Below are positions 2,460 to 35,382 of a stretch of DNA of 55,640 nucleotides, piece by piece. A program made the translations under genes and the position numbers. Origin of the DNA: Coriobacteriia bacterium (lineage in GTDB: Bacteria; Actinomycetota; Coriobacteriia; Anaerosomatales; JAAXUF01); assembly GCA_013334745.1 (NCBI GenBank), contig JAAXWY010000011.1, positions 1-55,640 on the forward strand. The letters run 5' to 3'. How positions within the stretch are numbered: the stretch's first letter is position 1; each line of letters opens with the position of its first letter. Below the pieces are notes generated by a model, which was not told the origin of the DNA, did not search any database, and saw nothing but the letters and a program-made list of their open reading frames with translations.

Positions 2460-4133
2460 ATGGCGGAAGCGAGACAGCGGCTCGGCGCACTGCTCATGCG
2501 AGCAGGGATTGTCACCGAGAAGCAACTCAACGATGCGCTCGAAGTGCATCGCGCGACCGGCAGCCCGCTCGGGCGCATCCTTGTTGACCTTGGATACGCG
2601 ACCCAAGGCGCCATCCTGTCGGTCATGGCGCATCAGATCGGCATCGAGTACATCGATTTCGCCGAGGTGCGGCCTGAGCCTGCCGCCGTCTGTCTCGTCT
2701 CGCGTGAGATGGCGAGTCGCTACATCCTGATGCCGATTGAGATTCGCGACGATCATCTGGTCGTTGCGATGGCCGATCCGCAGAACGTCCTCGCGCTGGA
2801 TGACCTGCGCATAATCACGAACTACGAGATCAGGCCCGCGATCTCGACGAAGGACGATATCGTCGCAGCCATCGAGCAGTACTACCGAGAGGCAGAGTCC
2901 GAGGAAAGCGACCTGTTCCACGGCACGGACGAGCTGAGCAACGACGATCTCGCGGGATTGACCGAGGTCGAGAGCGAAGCGCCGGCGGTCAAGCTGGTGA
3001 ACTACATCATTCAGAAAGCGGTCGCCGACAGGGCTTCCGATATTCACATCGAGCCGCAGGAGCACGATCTTCGTGTTCGATTCCGCATCGACGGTGTGCT
3101 TCACGAAGCGATGCAGCCCGCACCGAAGTCGATCCAGACGTCGATCATCTCGCGGCTCAAGATCATGTCTGAGCTCGATATAGCCGAGTCGCGCAAACCG
3201 CAGGACGGGCACTGCGCGGTCGTGGTGTCAGGTCACACCGTCGACTTCCGTGTGTCCACTCTACCCACGGTCTACGGCGAGCGAGTCGTTCTCAGGATCC
3301 TTCGCAAGGACGCGATTCTGCTCGAGCTCAAGGACCTCGGGTTCTTGCCGTCGTCGCTTGATCGCTTCCAGTCGGCCTTCTCGAAACCCTACGGCACAGT
3401 TCTCGTGACCGGGCCCACGGGGTCGGGCAAGTCGACATCGCTCTATGCCGCCATCAACGTACTCAATGACCCGGCGAGGCACATCATCACAGCCGAGGAC
3501 CCCGTCGAGTATCGACTGCCCGGAGTCAATCAATGCCAGGTCAACTCCCGAGCCGGACTCACCTTCGCGCGAGCGCTGCGCTCCTTCCTGCGCTGCTCAC
3601 CCGACATCATCCTCATCGGTGAGATTCGCGATCAGGAGACGGCTCAAATCGCCATCGAGTCGGCGCTCACCGGTCACCTCGTGCTTTCAACACTCCACAC
3701 GAACGACTCGGCCGGCGCCGTCACCCGACTCATAGAGATGGGCGTCGAGCCGTTCCTGGTCTCATCTGCGGTTGACTGCGTTCTTGCCCAGCGCCTTGCG
3801 CGCAAGCTGTGCGGCGACTGCAAGCAGGAGTGGCGCCCGAAGTCGGAAGTGCTCATAGACGCGGGCTACGATGCCGATAATCTCCCGGAGGCCGTGTATC
3901 GCGCCGTCGGCTGCAAGAAGTGCGGCGGCACCGGTTACCGCGGCCGGATCGGTGTGCACGAAGTCCTCATGATGTCCGAGGAGATCAGTAAGCTGTGTGT
4001 TGAGGAGGCGACTTCTGAAGCCATTCGCGAAGTCGCGATCTCACAGGGCATGCGAACGTTGAGGCAAGACGGTCTTGAGAAGGTCCGCATGGGCCAGACG
4101 TCGATAGAAGAGGTCGTCCGGGTCATCGTATAG
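2460..4133 (+). CDS. pilB: Type IV pilus assembly (extension) ATPase PilB/GspE.
   Basis: N-terminal GspE_N-like domain. Walker A GPTGSGKST. Asp/His boxes. C-terminal tetracysteine CGDC...CKKCGG. Length 557 aa. Confidence 0.9.
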   Translation: MAEARQRLGALLMRAGIVTEKQLNDALEVHRATGSPLGRILVDLGYATQGAILSVMAHQIGIEYIDFAEVRPEPAAVCLVSREMASRYILMPIEIRDDHLVVAMADPQNVLALDDLRIITNYEIRPAISTKDDIVAAIEQYYREAESEESDLFHGTDELSNDDLAGLTEVESEAPAVKLVNYIIQKAVADRASDIHIEPQEHDLRVRFRIDGVLHEAMQPAPKSIQTSIISRLKIMSELDIAESRKPQDGHCAVVVSGHTVDFRVSTLPTVYGERVVLRILRKDAILLELKDLGFLPSSLDRFQSAFSKPYGTVLVTGPTGSGKSTSLYAAINVLNDPARHIITAEDPVEYRLPGVNQCQVNSRAGLTFARALRSFLRCSPDIILIGEIRDQETAQIAIESALTGHLVLSTLHTNDSAGAVTRLIEMGVEPFLVSSAVDCVLAQRLARKLCGDCKQEWRPKSEVLIDAGYDADNLPEAVYRAVGCKKCGGTGYRGRIGVHEVLMMSEEISKLCVEEATSEAIREVAISQGMRTLRQDGLEKVRMGQTSIEEVVRVIV

Positions 4134-4159: not shown

Positions 4160-5380
4160 TTGGGGGTCATCATGGCGACGTATGTGTACTCGGTTCGTGA
4201 CAAGGCCGGCAAGGTCGTCAAGGGCAAGCTCGAAGGCGACAGCAAAGAGGCCGTTCAGAATCGGCTGGCCCAGATGGGCTATATCATCCTCGAGCTCGAC
4301 ACGCAGGGCGGCTTCGCCGCCTTGAATGACATCCAGTTCGCTTCATCGGTCAAACCCAAGGAAGTCGCCATCTTCGCGCGGCAGTTCGCGACGATGATCA
4401 GCGCGGGCCTCTCGCTTACGAAGTGTCTCTCGATCCTGTCGGCCCAAACCGAAAGTGCGGCACTTCGGGTCGTCATCACGCAGATAGGCAAGGATGTCGA
4501 GGCCGGGCAGTCGCTGTCCGATGCCCTCGGCAAGCACCCAAAGGTGTTCCCGGCCATCTTCGTGAACATGGTTCGTGCAGGTGAGACGGGTGGTGTGCTC
4601 GACGAGGTGCTCAGCCGCCTCGCCGATCACCTCGAGTCCGAGCAGGCGCTCAAGAACAAGATCAAGTCGGCGATGACCTACCCGATTGCAATGGGCGGGC
4701 TTGTCCTCGTTGTCTTGGCGGCCATGATGATCTTCGTCGTGCCGACGTTCGAGAAGATGTTCACCGATATGGGCGGGAAGCTTCCGGCGATCACGCAGAT
4801 GCTCGTCGATGTATCCCACCTCGTGACGAGCGTGTGGGGAATCGCACTGGCCGTAGGCATCTTCGCCGCCGTTTCGCTGTTCAAGTGGTGGTCGGCCGGA
4901 CCGGGAAAGACAATATGGGACGGCGCGAAGCTCAACATGCCCGTATTCGGACCGCTGACCCGCAAGATCGCCCTCGCGAAGTTCACTCGGACCTTCGGCA
5001 CCTTGGTCTCAGCGGGCGTACCGATCCTCTCCGCGCTGGATATCGTCGCGGATACCTCGGGCAACGAAGTTGTCGCCAACGCCGTGAAGCACGCACGCAA
5101 TGCAATCAAGGAAGGCGAGACGATCGCGAAGCCGCTCTCCGAATCGAAGGTATTCCCGTCGATGCTCGTTCAGATGATCGCGGTCGGCGAGGAGACCGGT
5201 GCGCTCGACGCGATGCTCAACAAGATCGCCGACTTCTACGATGAAGAGGTCGCCGTCGCTACGGACGGTCTCACGTCACTCATCGAGCCGCTCATGATGG
5301 CGTCGCTCGGCGTGATCGTCGGCGGCATGGTCATCGCGCTGTACCTCCCGATGTTTCAGGTCATCACGCTCGTCAACTAG
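4160..5380 (+). CDS. pilC: Type IV pilus platform protein PilC/GspF.
   Basis: 406 aa polytopic protein with duplicated GspF-like domains. Located immediately downstream of pilB. Confidence 0.9.
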   Translation: MGVIMATYVYSVRDKAGKVVKGKLEGDSKEAVQNRLAQMGYIILELDTQGGFAALNDIQFASSVKPKEVAIFARQFATMISAGLSLTKCLSILSAQTESAALRVVITQIGKDVEAGQSLSDALGKHPKVFPAIFVNMVRAGETGGVLDEVLSRLADHLESEQALKNKIKSAMTYPIAMGGLVLVVLAAMMIFVVPTFEKMFTDMGGKLPAITQMLVDVSHLVTSVWGIALAVGIFAAVSLFKWWSAGPGKTIWDGAKLNMPVFGPLTRKIALAKFTRTFGTLVSAGVPILSALDIVADTSGNEVVANAVKHARNAIKEGETIAKPLSESKVFPSMLVQMIAVGEETGALDAMLNKIADFYDEEVAVATDGLTSLIEPLMMASLGVIVGGMVIALYLPMFQVITLVN

Positions 5381-5613: not shown

Positions 5614-5961
5614 ATGAAGATGTTCCGTAAGGACGAGGGCTTCACACTCGTGGAACTCATGGTCGTCGTGCTCATTATCGGTATTCTTGTTGCTATCGCT
5701 ATTCCGGTCTTCAATGCTGCAAAGGCCAACGCCCAGAAGAAGTCGTGCTTCGCGAACCAGCGCACGATCGAGGGTGCGGCACAGACCTACGCCGCCGACA
5801 ACGACGGTACGCTTCCTGCAAGCCCGGCTGCGCTGACGCCGACCTACATCAAGGTCGCGCCGTTCTGCCCGGCTGACGCCTCGAAGGCCGCGTACTCGTT
5901 CGGTACGAGTGGCACCGTCGCTGCTTGCGGCTACGGGGATCCGGTTCACGGTCACTTCTAG
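5614..5961 (+). CDS. pilA: Type IVa major pilin (prepilin).
   Basis: Class III signal: MKMFRKDEG|FTLVELMVVV, with G at -1, F at +1 and E at +5. Hydrophobic alpha1 helix. C-terminal Cys pair (D-region). Strong RBS GGAGGTG. Length 115 aa. Confidence 0.85.
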   Translation: MKMFRKDEGFTLVELMVVVLIIGILVAIAIPVFNAAKANAQKKSCFANQRTIEGAAQTYAADNDGTLPASPAALTPTYIKVAPFCPADASKAAYSFGTSGTVAACGYGDPVHGHF

Positions 5962-6123: not shown

Positions 6124-6924
6124 ATGTGTGCCTTCGCGTTCGGGCTCATCTTCGGCTCGTTCGGCAACGTCGTGATCTGGCGGTTTCCGAGAGGCGAGTC
6201 ACTGTCGACACCCGGCTCGCATTGCCCCGTGTGCGACACCGCCATCGCCTGGTATGACAACGTCCCCGTTCTTTCGTGGATGCTGCTGCGCGGACGTTGC
6301 CGTGCGTGTGGGACGAAGATCTCTGCACGATATCCGGCAGTCGAGCTGCTGACCGGTGTTCTATGGCTTCTGGCGGCCATCCAGTTCGGCCCGACGGTCC
6401 AAGCTGGCTTCTGCGCCGCGTTCTTCTACCTTCTGGTGCTTCTGGCATTCATCGACTTGGACATAAAGCGTCTGCCCAACCCGCTTGTCGGGCTGCTCGC
6501 GCTCATCGGTGCGGTAGGCGTCGGGCTCTCACTCTTCGGTATCCCGGCGGCTCCGCTCATCGGTCCGGGCGGCGGGGTCTTGTCAAACCCGGCCGCGTTC
6601 GCTGTCGCGGGTTCGCTCTCGTCTGCAGGGCTCGTTCTGTTCATCGCACTTGCGTATCAGAAGGTGCGTGGCGTGGACGGATTCGGGATGGGAGACGTCA
6701 AACTGCTCGGGGCGATCGGTCTGTTCCTCGGCCCATATGCGCTGCTGACACTCTTCATCGGAAGCCTCATCGGGGCGGTGTATGGCTTGATCTCGGCTCG
6801 GACTTCACCGGATGGGCTGCGAAACACGTTTCCGTTCGGGCCTGCTCTGGCGGCCTCGGCCGTGATTGTGACGTTTGTCGGCGTGCCCCTCGTCGCTTGG
6901 TACCTGCACATCCTCACGTTCTAG
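6124..6924 (+). CDS. pilD: Prepilin peptidase and N-methyltransferase, A24 family.
   Basis: Zinc-binding CPVCDTAIAWYDNVPVLSWMLLRGRCRACG (C-x-x-C...C-x-x-C). Polytopic membrane protein. Length 266 aa. Confidence 0.85.
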   Translation: MCAFAFGLIFGSFGNVVIWRFPRGESLSTPGSHCPVCDTAIAWYDNVPVLSWMLLRGRCRACGTKISARYPAVELLTGVLWLLAAIQFGPTVQAGFCAAFFYLLVLLAFIDLDIKRLPNPLVGLLALIGAVGVGLSLFGIPAAPLIGPGGGVLSNPAAFAVAGSLSSAGLVLFIALAYQKVRGVDGFGMGDVKLLGAIGLFLGPYALLTLFIGSLIGAVYGLISARTSPDGLRNTFPFGPALAASAVIVTFVGVPLVAWYLHILTF

Positions 6925-6939
6925 GTGTGTGCGCTCGGT

Positions 6940-6953
6940 CACACGCGCGTGTG
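6940..6953. repeat. Perfect 14-bp palindrome CACACGCGCGTGTG immediately after pilD.
   Basis: Seen directly in the sequence. It could be a hairpin or a dimeric binding site in the pilD-pilA2 spacer. Confidence 0.3.
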
Positions 6954-7051
6954 CCTGGCTCCTCCAGACCTCTGTATCGCCTGACGATAATCGAGCCGTA
7001 ACATCTCGACGATCCGAGTCAGCGACGGAAGGAGATAGGAGGGTTGAACAC

Positions 7052-7411
7052 ATGCAGAAGTGCACAGCAGACGAGGGATTCACACTCCTCGAGATCATGG
7101 TCATCGTACTCATCGTCGGGATTCTTGTGGGGATCGCCATTCCGGTACTCGGCGCCGCCAAGGCCAACGCCCAGATGAAGTCGTGTTGGGCGAACCAGCG
7201 CTCCATCGAGGGCGCAGCGCAGACGTACGCGTCCGTGAACGGCGCAATGCCTGCCGGAGGTGCGGTTGACGGCGCAGGATGGGCGGTTCCCGTGTACATC
7301 GCTGAAGCGCCGATATGTCCGTGCGACGCCGCGATGAACCCGTATGAGATCGATGACCAGGGCACGGTAGTCAGTTGCTCGATGGGAGCGCCGGCCCACC
7401 AGCACTACTAA
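7052..7411 (+). CDS. Second type IVa pilin, paralog of pilA1.
   Basis: MQKCTADEG|FTLLEIMVIV, with G at -1, F at +1 and E at +5. RBS GGAGG is 8 nt upstream. Shares ANQR[ST]IEGAAQTYA and the C-terminal CPxD...HxH[FY] motifs with pilA1. Confidence 0.85.
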   Translation: MQKCTADEGFTLLEIMVIVLIVGILVGIAIPVLGAAKANAQMKSCWANQRSIEGAAQTYASVNGAMPAGGAVDGAGWAVPVYIAEAPICPCDAAMNPYEIDDQGTVVSCSMGAPAHQHY

Positions 7412-7659: not shown

Positions 7660-8799
7660 TTGAGGGAGGACGCGTTGGCCCCGGTATCGTTCGGTGCCGC
7701 ACTACCGCCTGTCGGTCTGGACATCGGGACCGACTTCATCCGCGCCGCGCAGATCAAGGCCGGCGGTGCTTCGCATTCACTGACCGCGTACGGGATTGCG
7801 CCGATGCCTTTCGGTGCGGTCGTTGAAGGCGAAGTCGTGGATCCCGAAGCCGTTTCCGCGGCCATCAAGGAGTTGTGGCACCGCAGCGGCGTGCGCAACA
7901 AGTCGGTTGCTGTCGGGGTCTCGAACCAGAAGGTCGTCGTTCGCCTAGTCGACCTGCCGTACATGGAGCGCGCCGAACTCGCGGGTGCGATTCAGTACCA
8001 AGCCCAAGACTACATCCCGATTCCGATCGAGGAAGCGATCATCGACTTCCAGATCATCGGTGACTACATGACCCCGGCTGACGAGCACATGATGGAAGTT
8101 CTCCTCGTCGCGGCCCAGCGGGACATGATCGGCAACATCGTCTCCGCGGTCGAAGGCGCCGGTCTTCAGCTCGCGCAGGTCGACGTCACGGCATTCGCGC
8201 TGGTTCGCGCCCTGCTGGGGGCCACCCCTAAGTGGCTCTCCGAGGAGGCCGAGAACCCGGCTGAGGCCGTGGGTATCGTCCACATCAGTTCCGGGCTGAC
8301 GAACATCGCGGTCGTGGAGCGTGGGCTTCCGCGTTTCACTCGCGTGTCATCGCTTGCCGCAAACCAGTTCACGCAAGCGATTGCCAACGTCATGAATCTG
8401 ACGTTTGACGAAGCCGAGAACCTTAAGGCCAGGGCGGGGCTGCCCGATATCGATCAGCCGGCCGAGTCGCACCCGGATCTCGATGCCGCCACGCTCTCCG
8501 CGGTGCAGGATGCGCTCGAGCGCGAAGCGAACAAGTTCATCGCCGAGGTTCGCAGGTCATTTGACTACTATCTCACCCAGGCCGTGCAGGTTCGAAGCAT
8601 CGGTCGGATCTACCTCACAGGCACCGGGGCCGAGCTTCGGAACCTGCCCGTGTACCTCGGACGCGGTCTCCAGACCGAGGTCGTGCTGGGGGACGCGCTG
8701 GCCGGGTTGCAGATGAGCGGCTCAGTCGAGTCCTCCGTGCTGCCGGATCGCGCGGGCTGTGCTGCAGCGATCGGCTTGGCGCTGGGAGGGGTGGTGTAG
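7660..8799 (+). CDS. pilM: Type IV pilus assembly protein PilM, an actin-like ATPase fold protein.
   Basis: LDIGTDFIRAAQ N-terminal sugar-kinase/actin fold motif. The stop abuts the pilN ATG. The true start may be the TTG at 7675, which follows a GGGAGG RBS. Confidence 0.85.
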   Translation: MREDALAPVSFGAALPPVGLDIGTDFIRAAQIKAGGASHSLTAYGIAPMPFGAVVEGEVVDPEAVSAAIKELWHRSGVRNKSVAVGVSNQKVVVRLVDLPYMERAELAGAIQYQAQDYIPIPIEEAIIDFQIIGDYMTPADEHMMEVLLVAAQRDMIGNIVSAVEGAGLQLAQVDVTAFALVRALLGATPKWLSEEAENPAEAVGIVHISSGLTNIAVVERGLPRFTRVSSLAANQFTQAIANVMNLTFDEAENLKARAGLPDIDQPAESHPDLDAATLSAVQDALEREANKFIAEVRRSFDYYLTQAVQVRSIGRIYLTGTGAELRNLPVYLGRGLQTEVVLGDALAGLQMSGSVESSVLPDRAGCAAAIGLALGGVV

Positions 8800-9441
8800 A
8801 TGCTTCGCATCAACCTGCTCCCTCGGGAGGTACTTGATCGCCAGAGGTTCCAAGGCTGGTACAGGTACGTCTTCATCATCACGCTTGGTCTCGTGCTCAT
8901 CGTTCTGCTCGTTGCGGCCGGCCTCTACTTCTCCGTGCAGCAGAAGAGCGATGAGTTGCAGTCAGCCAAGGATCGAGCGCAGCAGTACGCCGAACAGGGC
9001 AAGGCGTTCGACGTGTTTGAGAAGAAGGAGCAGGAGCTCACCGACCGACAGGCGATCGTCCAGACGGCGTTGGCCGGTCGTTTCAACTTCGGTCGTGTGG
9101 TCGAAGAGGTGTCCCTCGTTCTTCCCGACGAGGTGTGGCTCGATTCAATGAGTGTCGACCAGGCCAACGGACTGTCGATGGTCGCCAACACGCCTCGGTC
9201 GAGCAGCCAAAGCATGAATGTCGCCTACAAGTCGGTCGCAAAGACGCTTGTGCGGCTCAATGAGCTTTCAGAGGTCACCGACGTGTGGCTCACGAATGCA
9301 GCGAATCAGACCTGGAAGAACTGGGATGTATCCAGTTCTATCGACACAGGCACACCCGTGGTTCAGTTCACGGCGTCGGCGAAGTTCTCGCAGAGCACGC
9401 CATCGACCTCGACAGTAGCCCCAACGGGGGGTGCTGAGTGA
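8800..9441 (+). CDS. pilN: Pilus assembly protein PilN, bitopic.
   Basis: MLRINLLPRE N-terminus, a single TM helix and a coiled-coil periplasmic region. Tandem with pilM. Confidence 0.8.
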   Translation: MLRINLLPREVLDRQRFQGWYRYVFIITLGLVLIVLLVAAGLYFSVQQKSDELQSAKDRAQQYAEQGKAFDVFEKKEQELTDRQAIVQTALAGRFNFGRVVEEVSLVLPDEVWLDSMSVDQANGLSMVANTPRSSSQSMNVAYKSVAKTLVRLNELSEVTDVWLTNAANQTWKNWDVSSSIDTGTPVVQFTASAKFSQSTPSTSTVAPTGGAE

Positions 9442-10052
9442 TGTCCATCTCTCCTCGTGATCGTCTGGTCATCACCATTGTCGCGGCCGTACTTGTACTC
9501 GTCGCCCTGATTGCAGCGCTTGTGTACCCGCAGTTTCAGCAGGTGCGCAAGCTCAACACGCAGGTCATTGAGGCTGAAGCACAGGCCGACGCCGCAAAGC
9601 TCCAACTCGAGCAGCGGCAGGGCTTCAAGGACCGCGCGATCGAAACCAACGCCAAGTGGCTTGGGCTCATGAATGAGGTTCCCGAGACGCCCGACCTGCC
9701 CTCGCTCATTATCGAGCTGCAGGACTCCGCATACGAGAGCGGCGTTCAGGTCATCAGCGTCACTCCGACACAGCCCACTCAGCTGACGGGGTATGCCGCA
9801 GTGCCGATCTCGATCGAGGTGCTTGGGACGTGGGCGGATACCGTCGACTACCTGCAGTCACTGATGAAGTTGGATCGCGGTGTCCGGGTCGTCGGTACGA
9901 ACGTGACTGTGGCCGGAAGCGGGGCACTGCCTGAGCGCCGAAACTCCAAGGTGCCTGCGTATGCGGTGAGCTCTGTGATTTCAATTGAGACGTATCTGAT
10001 CCCTGCCGCGGTCGAGACCGCGACTCCGTCCGCGACTTCGACTGCACAGTAG
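9438..10052 (+). CDS. pilO: Pilus assembly protein PilO.
   Basis: ATGA overlap with pilN. N-terminal TM helix plus coiled coil and a C-terminal ferredoxin-like region. Position in the operon. Confidence 0.8.
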   Translation: MMSISPRDRLVITIVAAVLVLVALIAALVYPQFQQVRKLNTQVIEAEAQADAAKLQLEQRQGFKDRAIETNAKWLGLMNEVPETPDLPSLIIELQDSAYESGVQVISVTPTQPTQLTGYAAVPISIEVLGTWADTVDYLQSLMKLDRGVRVVGTNVTVAGSGALPERRNSKVPAYAVSSVISIETYLIPAAVETATPSATSTAQ

Positions 10053-10062
10053 GGGAGGGAAC

Positions 10063-10680
10063 ATGGCCGACAACACGAATGGGCAGCCGCCGGTGGGACC
10101 AGATCAGAAGCCTGCCTCGGCGACTTCAGGCTTTCTCTCCTCCACCGCTGGCAAGCTCGTGGTCGGCGGTGTGCTGTTGTTCTTGGTGCTGATTGCGGTA
10201 GGCGCTCTCGCGTTCTTCTTCCTCTTCGGTTCCGCCGCTCAGAAGGTTGCTCCTAGCTCCTCGACCACCGCCACAGCTCCGTCCAACCCGGCGACCGAGG
10301 GCATCGTACCCACGGACCCGCCTGAGCAGCCGCTGGACGAGACATTCACCTTCCGCAACGTCTTTGCGCCCACGGTCACGCCCGCACAGTCGAGTACGGA
10401 CGCCGATTCCGGTAGCGGCGGCTCGAGTGGCGACACATCACCAACGGCGAGCGGCGCGACCGACACCCTCATCCTGAAGTCGATTCACACGGACTCGGGT
10501 GAGCGAGTCGCGACGTTCGAGTGGAACGGCGCGGTGTACGAGTGCCGTGAGGGCGACCAGGTCGCCCAATCGCCATGGGAGGTCGTGACCATCTACTCCG
10601 ATTCCGTCGTCATGTTGTACGGCGACAGTCGAATCACCCTCACCGTGGGCCAGGGCTACACCGGATCCTGGGACAAGTAG
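10063..10680 (+). CDS. PilP-like protein: TM anchor, an S/T/P-rich linker and a C-terminal beta-domain.
   Basis: The C-terminal domain LILKSIHTDSGERVATFEWNGAVYECREGDQV...VVTIYSDSVVMLYGDSRITLTVGQ resembles the PilP beta-sandwich pattern. Position directly after pilO. Confidence 0.5.
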   Translation: MADNTNGQPPVGPDQKPASATSGFLSSTAGKLVVGGVLLFLVLIAVGALAFFFLFGSAAQKVAPSSSTTATAPSNPATEGIVPTDPPEQPLDETFTFRNVFAPTVTPAQSSTDADSGSGGSSGDTSPTASGATDTLILKSIHTDSGERVATFEWNGAVYECREGDQVAQSPWEVVTIYSDSVVMLYGDSRITLTVGQGYTGSWDK

Positions 10681-10760: not shown

Positions 10761-11912
10761 ATGCGTTACGAGACTGCAGGCGAATCCCATGGGCGGGCGC
10801 TCACCGCGATCGTCACTGATGTGCCCGCGGGAATCCCTATCGACACTGACGCCATAGACCGTGATCTTGCGCGCCGTCAAGGCGGCTACGGTCGAGGTGG
10901 CCGGCAGCGCATCGAGACCGATCGCGCGACGATCCTTTCGGGTGTTCGGTTCGGCAAGACCATTGGAAGCCCGGTTGCGCTGGCTGTGGCGAATCGGGAC
11001 TTTGAGAACTGGCTTGATGTCATGAGTACCTCAGGCGTGCGCCCTGACGGGATTCGCGAGACGCACCCACGTCCGGGACATGCCGACCTGGCAGGCGTGC
11101 TGAAGATCGGATCGGACGACGCCCGAGACATCCTTGAACGTGCGAGCGCGCGCGAGACGGCCGCGCGCGTCGCGGCGGGTGGTGTCGCGAAGGCGCTCCT
11201 GAGTGCCATGGGTGTGTCGGTGAGATCCTACGTCGAGGCTATCGGCGGGGTGGTCATGCCCCTGGTCGACGATCCATCGACAGTCGATCCCGAGGTCGTC
11301 GAGTCAAGCGCCGTTCGATGCCCGGACCCTGACGCCACGGAGTCCATGAAGGCACGCATAGACTCAGCCCGCGCTGATGGCGAGTCGCTGGGTGGGGTGT
11401 TCGTGGTGACCGCTACCGGGCTCGTCCCAGGCCTTGGATCGTACGCCGAGGCGATGCGTCGTCTCGATGCACGGCTTGCAGGTGCTGTGATCTCGATTCC
11501 TGCGATCAAGGGCGTCGAGTTCGGTCTGGGGTTTGCGGCCGCGGCGGTGCCCGGTAGCCAGGCCCATGACGAGATTCATCACGATGCCGAGAGCGGCTTT
11601 CATCGGCCAACGAACCGTGCCGGCGGACTCGAAGGCGGCATGACGAACGGTGAGCCGCTCGTCGTGCGCGCCGCGATGAAGCCGATTCCGACCTTGATGC
11701 GCCCTCTCGCGAGCGTGGATCTCGATAGCCTTGAGCCGGTGGACGCGAGCAAGGAGCGCAGCGACATCTGTGCGGTCCCGGCGGCGGCCGTCGTGGGTGA
11801 GGCCGAGGTCGCGATCGTGCTGGCAACCGCCTACATGGAGAAGTTCGGTGGGGACTGCCTTGAGGACATGCTCGTAGCGCGTGATGCCTACCTCTCCCGG
11901 ATCAGCCGATGA
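10761..11912 (+). CDS. aroC: Chorismate synthase.
   Basis: MRYETAGESHGRALTAIV N-terminus and a full-length 383 aa product. Confidence 0.9.
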   Translation: MRYETAGESHGRALTAIVTDVPAGIPIDTDAIDRDLARRQGGYGRGGRQRIETDRATILSGVRFGKTIGSPVALAVANRDFENWLDVMSTSGVRPDGIRETHPRPGHADLAGVLKIGSDDARDILERASARETAARVAAGGVAKALLSAMGVSVRSYVEAIGGVVMPLVDDPSTVDPEVVESSAVRCPDPDATESMKARIDSARADGESLGGVFVVTATGLVPGLGSYAEAMRRLDARLAGAVISIPAIKGVEFGLGFAAAAVPGSQAHDEIHHDAESGFHRPTNRAGGLEGGMTNGEPLVVRAAMKPIPTLMRPLASVDLDSLEPVDASKERSDICAVPAAAVVGEAEVAIVLATAYMEKFGGDCLEDMLVARDAYLSRISR

Positions 11913-13537
11913 GTCACGTATTCCTGATCGGGTTCATGGGCGCCGGCAAGTCGACGGTTGGTCCTCTCGTGGCTGAGCGACTGGGTCGGCCGTTCATCGA
12001 CCTGGACGAAGTAGTCGCGGGGCAGCAGGGCCGAGAAATCGTCGAGATCTTCGAGGGTGATGGCGAAGCGGCGTTTCGCGCCTTCGAGCTCGAGGCCCTT
12101 GGGTCGATCGCGGACCGTTGTGACTCAGTGGTCGCATGCGGGGGCGGTCTTGTCACGATGCCGACGTCTGTCACGCGCATGCGCAAGCTTGGAACCGTGG
12201 TCCATCTTGTTACGACTGCCGATGAGGCTCTCAAGCGAATTGCTGATCCGTCGACGCGACCACTTCTCGCGGGTGAGAACCCTGAGTTGGCCGCGCGGTC
12301 GTTGTTGGACTCAAGACGCGAACTCTACGCAGCCGCAGCGGACTACGAGGTCGACACTGTGGGTCGGCCTATTGCTGAGGTCGTGGATGAGGTGGTGCTG
12401 CGTGTTGCATCGGCGCCCCGGCGCGGCCGACCGGTTGTCGTCCCGGTCAAGGTCGGCGAGATGCCGTATGAGGTGGTCATCGGGCCGGGTGTCCTCGAGG
12501 ATGCTGGGGCGCTGCTGCGCATCGGTGCGCCAACGGCCGGGCGAATTGCGCTTGTCACTGACACGACGGTCGGAGACCTGTTCGGTCTTACGGTGGAGCG
12601 AAAGCTCATCGAAGAAGGCTACGCGGTTCATCCCCTCGCTGTAGCTCCGGGTGAAGACTCCAAGAACTGGGCCGTGGCTGGGGAGATCCTTGAGGCACTG
12701 GCGGAACTGCGCTTCGAGCGGACTGACTTCGTGGTCGCGCTCGGCGGCGGCGTAGTCGGCGACCTAGCCGGCTTTGTGGCGGCGACCTACCTGCGCGGGA
12801 TTGGCTTTGCTCAGGTTCCAACCACTCTGCTCGCGCAAGTCGACTCATCCGTTGGCGGCAAGACCGGTGTGGACCTCAAAGCCGGCAAGAACCTGGCAGG
12901 CGCCTTCAAACAGCCTACAATTGTGATAGCGGACACAAATACTCTGGAGTTGTTGCCGCAGAGCGAATGGCGCAGTGGAACCGCCGAAGTGGCGAAGAGC
13001 GCAGTTGTAGACGGTGAGGAGTTCTTCAGCTGGCTCGAGGCCGCCGCTGAGCGGTTCGTTTCCAGGGATGAACGGACGATTATCGAGGCAGTTTCTCGGT
13101 GCGTCAGGTTCAAGGCGAGCGTCGTATCTGCCGATGAAACCGAGGTAGGACCGCGCGAGTGTTTGAACTACGGACACACGCTCGGGCATGCGATCGAGAA
13201 GGTTGCCGGTTACGGCGCGGTTCCGCACGGGATCGCGGTCGCGGAGGGCATGCGATTTGCGGCGAGACTCTCGGTCGAGGTTTCGGGTGGGAGCAGGGAG
13301 TTCGTCGCGAGGCAGGATGCCATCCTCGATACCCTCGGATTGGGAGCGATGACAGAGGCGCTGGATCCGCAATTGGTGCTTGAGGCAATGCATTCCGACA
13401 AGAAGGCACGAGGTGGAACGGTGCGATTCGTACTGGTGGAAGCTCCAGGAACGTGGAGGTGCGAGCCGATCGCGGACGCCGTGATCGCCGAGCACCTCGA
13501 CGCTTGGTTGGAGTCGAAGGTCAGGAGGACGCCATGA
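11909..13537 (+). CDS. Bifunctional shikimate kinase and 3-dehydroquinate synthase (AroK-AroB fusion).
   Basis: N-terminal [16 protein letters not shown]-loop (AroK, about 165 aa) fused to a DHQ synthase domain ([11 protein letters not shown]..., metal-binding His residues). ATGA overlap with aroC. Confidence 0.85.
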
Positions 13538-13968
13538 CGCGCGTACTTGTGCTCAACGGGCCCAACCTGAACCTTCTTGGCACGCGTGAGCCTGAGGTTT
13601 ACGGCTCCACAAGCCTCGCCGGTATCGAGTCCGACTTGAACGACCTCGCTCGCGAACTCGGCGTCGAGGTCGCGTTCGTGCAGAGCAACCACGAGGGCGA
13701 GCTGATCGACGCGGTTCAGCAGGCGGAGGGCACGTTTTCCGCGATTGTGTTCAATCCCGGAGCGTTCACGCACTACTCGTACGCACTGCGCGATGCAGTC
13801 GCGGCGATAGCGATTCCGGTCGTAGAGGTTCATCTGTCCAACATTTCCGCCCGTGAGGACTTCCGGAGAGAGAGTGTTATCGCGCCGGTGTGCGCGGGTC
13901 AGGTCAGCGGGTTTGGTACCGCATCGTACGCACTTGGGTTGCGCGCGGCCGCCAAACTGGTGAGCTAG
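13534..13968 (+). CDS. aroQ: Type II 3-dehydroquinate dehydratase.
   Basis: [24 protein letters not shown] is the canonical AroQ N-terminus. ATGA overlap with the aroKB stop. RBS AGGAGG. Confidence 0.9.
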
Positions 13969-14008
13969 CGCGTGTGTGAAGGGCACGGCTACGCAGCGGT
14001 GTGCGGCG

Positions 14009-14017
14009 TAGAATGGG
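14009..14017 (+). promoter_or_regulatory. Candidate -10 element TAGAATGGG upstream of the modular pilin gene.
   Basis: The same 9-mer as at 6071. It lies about 20 nt upstream of the ATG at 14035. Confidence 0.25.
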
Positions 14018-14034
14018 TAGAGGGAAGTGGCACG

Positions 14035-16062
14035 ATGATGGGGCTGAAGCGGTTCATGAAGAGTGACACTGGCTTCACTGTGGTGGAGTTCGTTATCGCT
14101 GCGGTGATTCTCTTCATGGTGTCCACGAGTGTGATGGGCGTGATCGCCTACGCCGGCACCGCGAATGCAGCGAACGCGATGCGGCAGAGCGGGCTTGAAC
14201 TTGCGAATCTCCGTATGGAACAGGCGCGCAACCTGTCGTACTCGAAACTTGGGACCGCGAGCGGCATTCCGACGGGCACCATCGAAACGCCTGAGATCGT
14301 CACGGTTCCCACAGCCGCCGGAGACCGCAGTTTCACGGTGGTTACCGACGTGGGTTGGGTGTGGGATGCTGACGGGTACTCGACCGACAAGAAGGTCACC
14401 ATCACTGTCTCGTGGACGTACCCGCGAGAGGCCAGTGTGACCCTGGAGTCGGCAGTCGTCGGAGAGGCCACCGGCAACACGGGCGACGTGTACGTCTACG
14501 TCGTGGACTCTGACACCAGCGACCCCGTACCGGGCGCCACTATCACGATCAAGCCGACCGCTTCGCCGACCGTCTCGGCGACGACTGGCTCGGCAGGTTA
14601 TGTACGTTGGGGAAAGGTGCCCACAGGCTCTATCGTCATAACGGGTACCTGCTCGACTCACTACCTTGATATGTCACCCGTCTCGGGCGCTACTGTGATT
14701 GCGAACCAGAAGAATATCTGGACCGTCCAGGGCGTTCGAGCAAGCAGCGGCACAGTTCACGTCACCGACAACTCGGGAAATCCGTTGCCCGGAGTTGCCG
14801 TGACAATCACGGGCCCGGCCGGATCAGCTGACTGGAGCTGTCCATCGGGAACCGGTACGGCCGTCTCGGATGAGAATGGTGACGCGTTTTTTGAGAAGTT
14901 GCGCAAAGGGACGTACACCGTCAGCGGCACCCTCAGCGGGTACAGCAAGAAGACGCCGGTGGACAACCTTGTCGTCGTCGCGGGTGGTAGCGCCTACACG
15001 AGTTCGCTTGTCATGAACCGCCTGACCACCCTGAAGGTCACGGTCAAGGACGCCAGCAACAACGCGATTCAAGGCGCTACTTGTACCGCGACAGGCGTCA
15101 CCTTCGGCGCTACGACCGATTCTCTCGGCCAGGCCACCAGCAACGACATGGGGGCCATCGGCACGAACAGGTCCTATACGGTCAGCGTCGCCAAGGCGGG
15201 ATACATCACCAACACGGGTACCGTCACGATGAGCCAGTACACCCAAGGTGAGGTCACCGTAGTCCTCTCGCCGCAGCCACCGACTACGATTCGGGTCACC
15301 GTCACCGATACCAGCGGAGTACCCATATCGGGCGCGACGTGCTCGGCGACGGGAGGGACGACGGTCGTATTCGCGTCGCTGACCGATGCGAACGGCGTCG
15401 CAACGAGCAATAACATGGGTGCCATCGGTACGGGCAAGACATATACCGTGACGGCCGCGAAGACGGGCTGGACGAGCAAGACGGGGACAGTGACCCTGAG
15501 CGAATACACGCAGGGGACGCTCACTATCCAGCTCTCGCCACCGGCACCGACCACGATCAAGGTGACCGTCACCAACAACACCGGGACGGCTCAGAAGGTC
15601 GTCGGTGCCACCATCACCGCCACCGGCCCGTCAACCGTGACGTTCCCGGCCGTCACCGACTCCAACGGCCAGGCGACCAGCAACAACATGGGTGCAATCG
15701 GCACGAACAAGACGTACACGGTGCGGTCGGTAAAGAGTGGATGGGTCACCACGACGGGCAACGTCACGCTTTCCGAGTACACGCAGGGAACGCTGACGAT
15801 CAAGATGCGCGCCACCCTTGAAGTGCTCTACAACGGCACGTACCCCCGTACGATCTACGTCTACACGAGCAGCACCCCGGGTGCGACCCATGCGTACACT
15901 CAGATAGCTCAGTCCGCCACGATTCCCGCCTCGTTCAATCTCCCGAGCGGCACCTACTGGGTGAGTCGACGTACCCCGTACGGCGGATCCGGTGCAGTGC
16001 CTCAGCCGCAGGTCGTGACGGACGGCGCGCTCAAGGCCGTCACGGCCCAGTCGAGCTGGTAG
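14035..16062 (+). CDS. Large modular type IV pilin-like protein, about 675 aa. A prepilin N-terminus is followed by five Ig-like/carboxypeptidase-regulatory-like beta-sandwich repeats.
   Basis: MMGLKRFMKSDTG|FTVVEFVIAAV, with G at -1, F at +1 and E at +5. RBS GAGGGAAG. Three well-conserved ~87-aa tandem repeats, preceded by two more divergent ones. S/T/G-rich composition. Confidence 0.75.
   Translation: MMGLKRFMKSDTGFTVVEFVIAAVILFMVSTSVMGVIAYAGTANAANAMRQSGLELANLRMEQARNLSYSKLGTASGIPTGTIETPEIVTVPTAAGDRSFTVVTDVGWVWDADGYSTDKKVTITVSWTYPREASVTLESAVVGEATGNTGDVYVYVVDSDTSDPVPGATITIKPTASPTVSATTGSAGYVRWGKVPTGSIVITGTCSTHYLDMSPVSGATVIANQKNIWTVQGVRASSGTVHVTDNSGNPLPGVAVTITGPAGSADWSCPSGTGTAVSDENGDAFFEKLRKGTYTVSGTLSGYSKKTPVDNLVVVAGGSAYTSSLVMNRLTTLKVTVKDASNNAIQGATCTATGVTFGATTDSLGQATSNDMGAIGTNRSYTVSVAKAGYITNTGTVTMSQYTQGEVTVVLSPQPPTTIRVTVTDTSGVPISGATCSATGGTTVVFASLTDANGVATSNNMGAIGTGKTYTVTAAKTGWTSKTGTVTLSEYTQGTLTIQLSPPAPTTIKVTVTNNTGTAQKVVGATITATGPSTVTFPAVTDSNGQATSNNMGAIGTNKTYTVRSVKSGWVTTTGNVTLSEYTQGTLTIKMRATLEVLYNGTYPRTIYVYTSSTPGATHAYTQIAQSATIPASFNLPSGTYWVSRRTPYGGSGAVPQPQVVTDGALKAVTAQSSW
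15031..15813 (+). repeat. Three tandem ~261-nt coding repeats. Each contains ...(I/L)(K/R)VTV(K/T)D...GATC(T/S)ATG...SNNMGAIGT(N/G)(K/R)(T/S)YTV...SEYTQGTLTI...
   Basis: Direct comparison of translated segments. The DNA copies are diverged to roughly 70% identity, so the duplication is not recent. Confidence 0.7.
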
Positions 16063-16071
16063 GCGAGGACA

Positions 16072-16728
16072 ATGCGATTCCTCGATGATGACAGCGGTCT
16101 GACCCTTACGGAGTTCTTGATCGTCGCGATGCTGATCTCTGTGATCATCACGGCGTCGTACTTCATGTTCAATGCCGCCGCCTCGATGACTGATCAGACG
16201 ACGGCGCGCGCCTACGCACAGGACGAGGCACAGCGCGCGGTCGACCGGATGACGCGCGATCTGCGGCAGTCGATGCAGGACACGAGCGACAACAACGGCG
16301 TTGTGCGGATCGCCGAGGCGAGCCAACTGAAGTTCTCAGCGGATGTCAATGCGGACATGAAGCCGGAGATGATCCGCTATTACATCGAGGGGAACTCGCT
16401 GAAGCGCACGGTGGCGCTCCCGACAACCTCTGAGGTTCCCTATAGCTACGGGAGTCCGGGTGCGCCCACGATACTGATCAAGAAGCTGGGAACGTCGGCT
16501 GGAACGATGTTCTGCTATCACAGCGTCGACCGCAACACGACCGTCTATTGCGGGCCCATCAAGCATGGATTCAACGTGGTCACCACGACCGACCCGTTTA
16601 ACACGACACCCAAGATCTCCATGATCGGAGTGAAGTTGGACACGGTGGGCGAATCCGGCTCCAAGACAGTCACTGTCACCAGCCGGGTGATGGTTCGCAT
16701 CCGCACAGTAGAGAATCGGGTTGATTAG
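16072..16728 (+). CDS. Minor pilin or pseudopilin with a prepilin-type N-terminal cleavage/methylation domain.
   Basis: MRFLDDDSG|LTLTEFLIVAMLISVII, with G at -1 and E at +5. Length 218 aa. Located 9 nt after the modular pilin stop. Confidence 0.7.
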   Translation: MRFLDDDSGLTLTEFLIVAMLISVIITASYFMFNAAASMTDQTTARAYAQDEAQRAVDRMTRDLRQSMQDTSDNNGVVRIAEASQLKFSADVNADMKPEMIRYYIEGNSLKRTVALPTTSEVPYSYGSPGAPTILIKKLGTSAGTMFCYHSVDRNTTVYCGPIKHGFNVVTTTDPFNTTPKISMIGVKLDTVGESGSKTVTVTSRVMVRIRTVENRVD

Positions 16729-16729
16729 C

Positions 16730-18073
16730 ATGAAGGCGCAGACTCGCTTCGATCGTTTGCGGAGCGCGGCCTCTGACGACAGAGGCATGGCGCTCGCGGT
16801 TGTCCTCATCATGTCGGCAGTGCTCTTCCTGCTGGCCACGACGCTGCTGATGGTGGTCTCGTACCGCGGCAATCAAACCGTCTCGGGCGAGAAGCACAAT
16901 CAGGCGATGCACGTCGCCGAGGCCGGGATCAACGAGTACATGTATCAGCTCAGTGTCGACTACGGCTACTGGCAGACCCACGAGACCCTCGGGCCTGTGA
17001 ACACGGAGGACGGACAGTGGCTCGTCACCCGGAGCCAGAACTCGTCGGACGTGGTCATCCTCACATCAGTCGGGACGCTGAACGACGGTACCGAGCGTAC
17101 CGTGCGTGCATCCGTCAGCTTCCCGAGCTGGGCGAAGTACATCGTCTGCGTCGATCAGGGTCCGTACAGCATCGGCGCCGGCGCCACGTTCTACGGCGAC
17201 GTCCACTGCAATGAGGGTATCAGCAACTCCGGGGTGATTACGGGTAGGGCCACAGCCGGGCTGGGGGCAAACTGCACCTGGGGTACGTCGGCGGCCGCAA
17301 ACTATCCTGGTGGCTATAAGAACAACTACAAGAACATCGACTTCAGCCAGCTCACCTACGACCTCGCTCAGATGAAGTCTACGGCGCAGGCCGAGTCGAC
17401 GTACAAGGCCGCTTCAGGCTTCCTTGGCTACCAAGCGGTGATCAATGGTGCCACGGTGACCATCACCAAGATCCAGGCGATAAACAAGAACCTGCCAAGA
17501 ACCGGCTACCCGAGCGACCCGCTGCTTGGTGCGATCACCACCACCGGCACAGCCGAGGTCTACGCGATTCCGCACAGCGGCGTCTTCTTCTTCGACGACA
17601 ACGTGTGGGTCACGGGGAACTACTCCGCGTCGGTCACGTTCGCCACGAGCAAGAACGTTTACTGCCCGGGCAACATCACCCCCACGACGAGCGGTGCCAA
17701 TGTGACGTGTGGGCTTGTCGCACAGCTGCAGGTGCTGTTCCCGTGGTGGTACCAGACGATGCCCGACGACCAGATGGTCCAGGCTGCGTGTTTGTCGCAG
17801 ACGGCCGGTGTCGGCCCCGAGGCGCCATCAGGGTTGAAGAAGTACAACACGACGACCAAGGCGTGGACCGACACGCTGACACTCGGTTCCTCTGACTACA
17901 AGAACTCCGTCACGCTCAAGGGCGCACGTGCCATGGTTCAGATGATCGGATTCTCGTCGGGCTACACAATCCGAAACTTCGACCGCGATCCGGTGCTGGC
18001 GAACAACCCGCCGCCGCTCTACCCCAAGCTGACCGGCGAGAGCCTGCAGATCGACACGTGGCAGGAGCTCTAG
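16730..18073 (+). CDS. PilX_N-like pilus assembly/minor pilin protein with a C-terminal S/T/G/N-rich beta-rich domain.
   Basis: The N-terminus ...ERGMALAVVLIMSAVLFLLATTLLMVV...HNQAMHVAEAGINE matches the PilX N-terminal pattern (G, then a hydrophobic helix, then ...AEAG...). There is no E at +5. The ATG is 1 nt after the previous stop. Confidence 0.6.
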   Translation: MKAQTRFDRLRSAASDDRGMALAVVLIMSAVLFLLATTLLMVVSYRGNQTVSGEKHNQAMHVAEAGINEYMYQLSVDYGYWQTHETLGPVNTEDGQWLVTRSQNSSDVVILTSVGTLNDGTERTVRASVSFPSWAKYIVCVDQGPYSIGAGATFYGDVHCNEGISNSGVITGRATAGLGANCTWGTSAAANYPGGYKNNYKNIDFSQLTYDLAQMKSTAQAESTYKAASGFLGYQAVINGATVTITKIQAINKNLPRTGYPSDPLLGAITTTGTAEVYAIPHSGVFFFDDNVWVTGNYSASVTFATSKNVYCPGNITPTTSGANVTCGLVAQLQVLFPWWYQTMPDDQMVQAACLSQTAGVGPEAPSGLKKYNTTTKAWTDTLTLGSSDYKNSVTLKGARAMVQMIGFSSGYTIRNFDRDPVLANNPPPLYPKLTGESLQIDTWQEL

Positions 18074-35118: not shown

Positions 35119-35382
35119 CGCTGTCGATCTGGCGATGGACGGCTTGCTGATGGTGCGCGCCTCCGGGTTCGGCGGCCGAGAAGGCCGCGTCTGAATGGAT
35201 CGGCCGCTTCACACCGGCCAGCACAAGTGTACCCGAGCGGCTCGCGGCGCACCCTGCAGTATTCGCTATACTGACCTCGGGCACAGTTGCCCGGACGCGG
35301 CGCGCCCGCACCGGATCACCCCTAGTCGAACCGAGGCGGCGAACGCGACACACTCGTGTCAGTGCAGCCGCATGGAGCGGGA

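Follow-up and report, generated by a model that had tools for sequence, protein, structure and literature searches.

A PilP-like homology-region protein with a near-invariant terminal lysine in type IVa pilus loci of Coriobacteriia

Results

The gene and its product

The stretch of DNA analysed here (contig JAAXWY010000011.1, positions 1 to 55,640; hereafter the window, 55.6 kb) carries a type IVa pilus locus, and we report on the gene that ends the pilM-pilN-pilO block of this locus. Its 205-amino-acid (aa) product has the homology region (HR) fold and an RDPF-type sequence motif, the gene occupies the operon position of pilP, and there is no secretin gene in the usual place of pilQ. Besides the window, the DNA covered in this work consisted of stretches of about 20 kb from related contigs (22 related loci). 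The coordinates of the pilus genes and of the parts of the protein are given in Table 1.

The open reading frame (ORF) starts 10 nucleotides (nt) past the stop codon of pilO (10050-10052). Its product is identical to NCBI HGB10_04650, a "hypothetical protein" from a metagenome-assembled genome (MAG) of the Coriobacteriia, and the host was assigned to this class from that database match; as far as the names show, the members are uncultured. The N-terminus consists of a 30-residue segment, in which D3, F24, and G30 are kept in at least 90% of 50 aligned homologues, followed by an uncleaved-looking transmembrane (TM) helix. The Kyte-Doolittle maximum (19-residue window) lies at residues 37-55 with a mean of 3.1, and the AlphaFold2 model, which was built from the 50-sequence alignment, has a helix at residues 28-60 with a predicted local distance difference test score (pLDDT) above 90 over roughly residues 31-50. 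The 78-residue linker that follows contains 13 S, 13 T, 11 A, and 10 P. It leads to a six-stranded HR domain, after which residues 201-205, the final block of the model, have a mean pLDDT of 57. A preliminary description of this DNA, made from the letters alone, had proposed a TM anchor, a long S/T/P-rich linker, and a C-terminal beta-domain, and hydropathy, composition, and the AlphaFold2 model bear this out. The strings that it quoted from the domain (GDQV, VVTIYSDSVVML, and ITLTV) are all present in the product.

PilP has no counterpart of the conserved N-terminal segment (residues 1-30), for which PilM or PilC are possible partners. We also considered whether the protein is a lipoprotein. 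This was rejected because C161 is its only cysteine and a lipobox is absent; among the relatives, only 10 of 209 have a Cys anywhere within the first 80 residues.

Gene order and the empty pilQ place

The order pilM-pilN-pilO followed by the PilP-like gene is kept in every related locus with enough upstream DNA. This gene order, together with the Pfam matches to PilM_2 and PilO, confirmed that the gene is the last of the pilMNO block, as the preliminary description had stated. In the window and in two related loci (L001 and L003), the PilP-like gene is followed directly by aroC, aroK-aroB, and aroQ; in a third (L023), the equivalents of three pilin-like genes come first and precede aroC. As a comparison, E. 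coli K-12 has hofM-N-O-P-Q followed by aroK-aroB. P. aeruginosa has the same arrangement, pilMNOPQ-aroK-aroB. From this shared order of pilMNO and aro genes it follows that the PilP-like gene sits in the pilP slot and that the pilQ slot is empty.

We searched for the missing secretin in two ways. Using phmmer, no HofQ-like ORF was found in the window or in the 22 related loci, and Pfam gave no Secretin match to the scanned ORFs of the window; no N0, STN, or Secretin domain was seen in any locus protein that was scanned. Thus, the earlier statement that the protein is without a partner secretin stands for the window and the 22 loci, and we limit it to these rather than extending it to the whole genome. 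Repeated loss of the secretin has been inferred at the emergence of monoderm type IVa pili (Denise et al., PMC6668835), and cultivated free-living Coriobacteriia of the Anaerosomatales have Gram-positive walls and pili-like appendages (PMC9686372).

Fold and sequence similarity

When the AlphaFold2 model was compared with the PDB using Foldseek, the top 13 matches were solely GspC, PilP, and GspB (TM-score 0.82, normalised to 3oss_C). With two fold-search methods, HR proteins alone ranked on top. The comparison with PilP and GspC HR domains that the preliminary description had proposed was thus positive, and the reading of the protein as PilP-like is supported by its fold. In the strict sense of "a PilP" it does not hold, given the TM anchor and the failed thresholds of the curated models.

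Results with sequence models were more mixed. Pfam gave no PilP, T2SSC, or significant T2SSB match to the protein, to the 50 homologues, or to distant members, and for the window protein there was no PilP match even at E ≤ 1. The NCBIfam model TIGR03021 (pilP_fam) matched the window protein at E 3.7e-4 and 21.5 bits, which is under its cutoff of 34.65. The same model matched 47 of the 50 homologues and, at E ≤ 0.01, 95 of 133 family members, with a best E of 1.4e-9. Likewise, GspC_delta had a sub-threshold match to residues 40-196 of the window protein (E 1.4e-5) and matched 25 of the 50 family members, and the GspC model NF041515 scored 25 bits against a cutoff of 150 over profile positions 6-164 of 311 only. 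Identity as GspC itself was rejected because the protein has no PDZ domain.

We do not regard the missing Pfam PilP match as disqualifying because HofP of E. coli, which is in the pilP slot, is also outside Pfam PilP and has its own family, PF10748. HofP (L022, 5616-6020, E. coli K-12) matches PF10748 only and finds no solved structure by sequence, and so illustrates the poor coverage of PilP-type proteins by sequence models. Sequence profile searches of the PDB (A1 and A3) and phmmer with HofP gave no PilP, GspC, or GspB and returned TM and low-complexity noise only. Alignment of the family with the single HofP sequence by hhalign was insignificant (E 0.17), and a tblastn search of plasmids for R64-type PilP with the C-terminal 120 aa gave no match.

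The linker motif

The linker carries a motif whose core, F-R-x-x-F-x-P, is invariant in the 50 sequences at F97, R98, F101, and P103. When 230 fetched relatives were examined for the pattern R-[DN]-x-F-x-P, it was found in 209, mostly as RNVF (73), RDIF (53), or RNIF (40) and less often as RDVF (16), RDPF (16), or RNPF (5). Distant relatives have VFAVRDPFKPL, SRDPFQPL, or FRDPFVPL at this position, so that the FRNVFAP form grades into the RDPFxP form of HofP. In E. coli HofP the motif reads MRDPFKPP and lies directly after the lipobox and ahead of the beta-domain. RDPF is a common feature of PilP proteins, which we confirmed here for HofP. A literature search on this motif returned nothing usable. 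The motif segment is unstructured in the model, with a pLDDT of about 56-59, and this low value fits with the idea that the motif binds in trans.

Family size and distribution

The gene belongs to a large conserved family, and a chance ORF was therefore rejected. A word-indexed search gave 86 homologues at E ≤ 1e-3 in 90% clusters. When the C-terminal 120 residues were used in an exhaustive profile search of 1.84 billion representatives, 415 clusters (50% identity) were obtained at E ≤ 1e-3, 263 of them at E ≤ 1e-10, which makes 415 a lower bound for the size of the family in clusters. Of the best 150 profile matches, most are about 200 aa long, and all align up to the C-terminal end. Across these clusters, conservation is highest in the HR domain, the surface of which includes residues that are near-invariant in the 50 homologues, among them W154, N155, P171, and W172. 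A search with distant members that consist of the HR domain only yielded fragments only.

Few members carry taxon names, and where they do, nearly all are uncultured Coriobacteriia or Actinomycetota MAGs. A genome scan likewise gave only Coriobacteriia and Actinomycetota MAGs and a few labelled "Eubacteriales". One "Clostridiales"-labelled member came from protein search A3, which otherwise gave the same family. We read these two labels as binning labels rather than as Firmicutes because PilM on the one "Eubacteriales" contig that was compared (L006, the same contig as L001) is 81% identical to PilM of the window. Some members are called "type IV pilus biogenesis protein PilP" by the JGI pipeline and others "RodZ" or "hypothetical", and NCBI lists them as hypothetical. 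Two of the related loci (L005 and L008) have the same genes with many frameshifts that split pilB, pilC, pilM, and the aro genes. These are probably errors of long-read assembly rather than signs of pseudogenisation, and a 353-aa "homologue" (P0086) is such a frameshift artefact.

The terminal lysine

 
Among 260 members with the MLYGD-type strand, the last residue is Lys in 253 and Arg in 4; of the other three, one is visibly frameshifted. For comparison, Lys makes up 2.95% of the residues of the family, and a terminal Lys is found in 2 of 14 PilN and 0 of 14 PilO proteins from the same loci and in about 11% of long ORFs. The near-invariant terminal Lys of this family is a new observation. 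The consensus C-terminal end is G-Q-G-[IVL]-[ST]-K, and the tail has 13 to 29 residues after the MLYGD-type strand or 3 to 19 after GQG. Where the tail is longer than usual, 63 of 65 members still end in Lys, and the remaining two are one that ends in Arg and one frameshifted protein. Because the Lys end persists across tail lengths, the conserved feature is the last residue and not a position in the fold.

We also compared codons in 17 distinct loci. The last sense codon is AAG in all 17, and the stop codon is TAG in 16, TAA in 1, and TGA in none. The ratio of TAG to TGA is 9:7 in pilM, 11:5 in pilN, and 11:6 in pilO, and long ORFs overall have 71 TAG and 76 TGA. If any extension of the protein abolished its function, this avoidance of TGA, the leakiest stop codon, could be due to selection against read-through; it may also be mere shared descent. 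A constraint at the nucleotide level behind the terminal AAG was considered and rejected. Such an element is unlikely because the DNA past the stop codon is not conserved between distant loci, and the downstream gene also differs between loci.

Other genes of the window

The three pilin-like genes downstream of the aro genes belong to the same pilus system, which the aroC, aroK-aroB, and aroQ genes interrupt in the window. The largest product combines an N-methyl motif with five CarboxypepD_reg/Big_1-type repeats.

Upstream of pilB, within positions 38-2357, are a Ras/Arf-like small GTPase (574-1104; Pfam ATP_bind_1, Ras, and Arf) and, directly before pilB, a 418-aa proline-rich membrane protein with no Pfam match (1101-2357). 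L001 and L023 have these two genes in the same place before pilB, preceded in L001 by a gene for a PatA_N-domain protein. The pair might serve the pilus as a module for polarity or regulation that acts in an MglA-like manner. No PilT retraction ATPase was found in the window, where tblastn with PilB returned PilB alone. A second T2SSE ATPase lies between pilB and pilC in L023 and directly upstream of pilC in L003, the upstream end of which is cut off. The pilus may be non-retractile, or pilT may be encoded elsewhere. Further along the window are a 785-aa ORF on the + strand (35356-37713) with no Pfam family at E ≤ 1e-5 and a 747-aa protein (43937-46180), the SPFH/Band 7 domain of which is limited to the middle part (331-509) and which is unusually long for that family.

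Table 1. Features of the pilus locus and of the PilP-like protein, with positions in the window.
Feature	Position	Strand	Basis
pilB	2460..4133	+	Pfam T2SSE 6.5e-140 with MshEN
pilC	4160..5380	+	Pfam T2SSF 4e-70
Pilin gene	5614..5961	+	Pfam N_methyl
Prepilin peptidase gene pilD	6124..6924	+	Pfam A24_N_bact, Peptidase_A24
Second pilin-like gene	within 6875..7411	+	Pfam scan
pilM	7660..8799	+	Pfam PilM_2 8e-54; TIGR01175 9e-67
pilN	8800..9441	+	Weak Pfam PilN (0.0086), position, N-terminal MLRINLLP motif
pilO	9438..10052	+	Pfam PilO 1.2e-13
Shine-Dalgarno-like GGGAGGG	10053..10059	+	Directly after pilO stop, 3 nt before ATG; read from sequence
Coding sequence of PilP-like HR-domain protein	10063..10680	+	ATG start, TAG stop, 205 aa; ORF, translation, and exact database match
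Residues 1-30, conserved N-terminus, presumably cytoplasmic	10063..10152	+	M-[VA]-D-x-x-N ... G-F-L-x-[ST]-x-x-G-K just before TM helix
Residues 31-56, single TM anchor	10153..10230	+	Hydropathy and AlphaFold2 helix
Residues 57-134, S/T/A/P-rich linker, 78 aa, predicted disordered	10231..10464	+	Composition; pLDDT 43-68
Residues 94-104, TFTFRNVFAPT, R-[DN]-x-F-x-P motif	10342..10374	+	Variant of HofP RDPFxP
Residues 135-198, HR beta-sandwich, six strands, PilP/GspC/GspB fold	10465..10656	+	pLDDT 87-97 (AlphaFold2)
Residues 199-205, short flexible tail to Lys205 (AAG 10675-10677), then TAG	10657..10677	+	
aroC, aroK-aroB fusion, aroQ	10761..13968	+	Translations; Pfam calls for equivalents in L001, L003, L023
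Three pilin-like genes (696, 218, 450 aa)	13972..18073	+	N_methyl and CarboxypepD_reg repeats; pilin-like N-termini

Discussion

Together, these data indicate that the protein is very probably an HR-family component and the fourth member of the PilM-PilN-PilO platform of a type IVa pilus in a single-membrane actinobacterium. The explanation that we favour overall, and to which we give about an even chance, is that it is a divergent HR protein of the PilP/GspC/GspB kind that acts as a wall-tethered strut of this platform. In such a model, the N-terminal helix would anchor the protein in the cytoplasmic membrane with its N-terminus inside, in the manner of GspC and GspB and in place of the lipid anchor of PilP. 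The R-[DN]-x-F-x-P motif and the adjoining linker would bind the extracellular parts of PilN and PilO, by analogy with the N-terminal region of PilP, and a flexible linker of about 78 residues could allow the HR domain to extend into the thick wall. Within the wall, the near-invariant terminal Lys would tether the protein to peptidoglycan, the likeliest route being a covalent bond made by an L,D-transpeptidase as in Braun's lipoprotein (Lpp) and OutB/GspB. A direct link to the wall might in this way replace the PilP-PilQ link to the outer envelope, brace the platform, and give it a fixed point in the wall.

The tether is the more doubtful part of this model, and we put it forward as somewhat short of an even proposition. 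Peptidoglycan as the partner, one of the options named in the preliminary description, has indirect support from the C-terminal Lys and from an architecture like that of OutB (PMC12274547). More tentative still is the possibility that this is the first monoderm case of a C-terminal Lys fixed to peptidoglycan by an L,D-transpeptidase, which would bolt the pilus platform to the wall after loss of PilQ. If so, the HR module of PilP and GspB would be an ancestral connector between platform and envelope, the target of which shifted from secretin to wall.

Several observations weigh against this model. No curated PilP model passed, neither from Pfam nor TIGR03021 (21.5 against 34.65 bits), and the strongly conserved HR surfaces could also mean a protein partner. 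A C-terminal Lys occurs in more than 20% of E. coli periplasmic proteins and lipoproteins (PMC12274547). The G-Q-G-[IVL]-[ST]-K tail also differs from the Lpp box. A six-frame search with the catalytic pattern S-x-G-C-[IVLF]-[RH] found no YkuD L,D-transpeptidase motif in the window or the related loci, and the enzyme is therefore hypothetical for these genomes; a literature search on L,D-transpeptidases in Coriobacteriia returned nothing usable. For monoderms, no case is known in which an L,D-transpeptidase attaches a protein to peptidoglycan. Sortase is the only route of covalent attachment described in a 2025 review on protein trafficking in Gram-positive bacteria.

Rather unlikely, but the strongest of the alternatives, is that the protein is a relic PilP that only stabilises the PilN-PilO heterodimer, with an HR domain that has no outside partner and a terminal Lys of minor or unrelated use, for example in charge, in folding, or as context for termination. 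The stability of PilN-PilO depends on PilP in diderms, and a review argues that this is its sole role in filament assembly as such (PMC6916266). The conserved RDPF-type motif would fit with such a relic, as would the lack of an L,D-transpeptidase gene nearby. By contrast, a partnerless HR domain would not be expected to be the best-conserved part of the protein over at least 415 clusters. Nor does a relic account for a last residue that stays Lys while the tail spans 3-19 residues after GQG, or for the avoidance of TGA stops.

We consider it improbable that the HR domain binds another protein in place of N0 and forms a collar around the pilus in the wall zone. Such a partner could be the pilus fibre or the large minor pilins, further copies of the protein arranged as a ring, or an N0-like domain from another part of the genome. 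All characterised HR domains bind protein, namely secretin N0 (PMC9239104), three large pilin-like genes always accompany the locus, and W154, N155, P171, and W172 are near-invariant. However, the scanned locus proteins have no N0, STN, or Secretin domain, and such a partner by itself leaves the terminal Lys unexplained, although it is compatible with a wall tether.

It seems very unlikely that the protein is a canonical PilP and that genes for a secretin, and perhaps for an outer membrane, lie in another part of the genome. Our evidence covers 55.6 kb of this genome, and some genomes classified as Gram-positive carry PilQ homologues (PMC3244431). Against this, neither the window nor any related locus has pilQ in its conserved slot between pilP and aro genes, cultivated Coriobacteriia have Gram-positive walls (PMC9686372), and the protein has a TM anchor and is not a lipoprotein. 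The idea that this is an unrelated lineage-specific membrane protein with a coincidental likeness to PilP, an alternative raised in the preliminary description, can be dismissed: although there is no Pfam match, the PDB profile searches lacked PilP, and hhalign with HofP was insignificant, it is contradicted by the fold searches, the family-wide NCBIfam matches to pilP_fam and GspC, the operon position, and the RDPF-type motif.

According to reviews, monoderms lack PilP, which is called logical since PilP is known for connecting PilMNO with the secretin, and the way in which monoderm pilus machines are fixed in a thick wall and cross it is described as open and "entirely speculative" (PMC6916266). 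In our literature search, no paper was found that describes a PilP-like protein in a monoderm pilus locus. Here, an HR-domain relative of PilP is retained and strongly conserved in a large actinobacterial lineage without pilQ at the locus. The gene order shared with the pilMNOPQ-aroKB operons of diderms suggests that the gene was inherited while the secretin was lost, a history relevant to how envelope-spanning machines adapt to life without an outer membrane. The near-invariant terminal Lys offers a concrete, testable hypothesis of wall anchoring by a mechanism that was only recently proven for OutB, its structural equivalent. Should the tether be real, protein attachment mediated by L,D-transpeptidases extends beyond diderms; if it is not, the family is still a natural experiment on the role of PilP without PilQ.

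Comparison with known systems

As with PilP of P. aeruginosa and N. meningitidis and HofP of E. coli, the gene for the protein comes immediately behind pilO, in a pilMNO operon with aro genes downstream. The C-terminal HR beta-sandwich, the RDPF-type motif ahead of this domain, and the disordered region between anchor and domain are shared features as well. It differs from PilP in having a TM helix rather than a lipid anchor, in the lack of a secretin gene after its own gene, and in the approximately 30 S/T-rich residues that separate the motif from the HR domain. HofP ends in GG, whereas this family ends in a near-invariant Lys. Compared with GspC, the protein ends 7 residues past the HR domain and has no PDZ or coiled-coil region, and its gene accompanies pilMNO rather than gspL and gspM, with no secretin gene.

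In architecture, the protein matches OutB (GspB) of Dickeya, in which an N-terminal TM helix is followed by a linker of 75 residues, an HR domain, and a C-terminal extension of 30 residues (PMC12274547; also PMC9239104). The C-terminal Lys of OutB is covalently joined to the peptidoglycan stem peptide by the YkuD L,D-transpeptidases Ldt03 and Ldt84, as in Braun's lipoprotein (PMC12274547). A single C-terminal Lys is both required and enough; the residues before it can be substituted widely, a box shortened to ...RTTK works, and Vibrio-type Lpp ends in YTK (PMC12274547). The window protein similarly has a TM helix, a 78-residue linker, an HR domain, and a short tail with a terminal [ST]-K. In the window family this Lys is present and conserved, and a covalent attachment like the one proven for OutB would be putative. 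Unlike the window protein, OutB is a component of a diderm type II secretion system (T2SS) and also binds the secretin N0 domain. Its 30-residue tail has an Lpp-like box (VRTTKK), whereas the window family usually has three residues after GQG, [IVL]-[ST]-K. The genetic context also differs from that of GspB/OutB, being a type IVa pilus locus with pilB, pilC, pilD, pilins, and pilMNO and not a T2SS with gspA and gspS.

With Lpp, the protein shares a C-terminal Lys, which in Lpp is strictly required as the reactive end. The likeness is confined to this last residue, since fold, anchor, and location are unrelated and Lpp ties the outer membrane to peptidoglycan. Because it has no lipoprotein anchor and the curated models failed, the window protein is not a canonical PilP. 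Overall, it is a PilP-like variant that would work in the manner of PilP and GspB but is a canonical member of neither.

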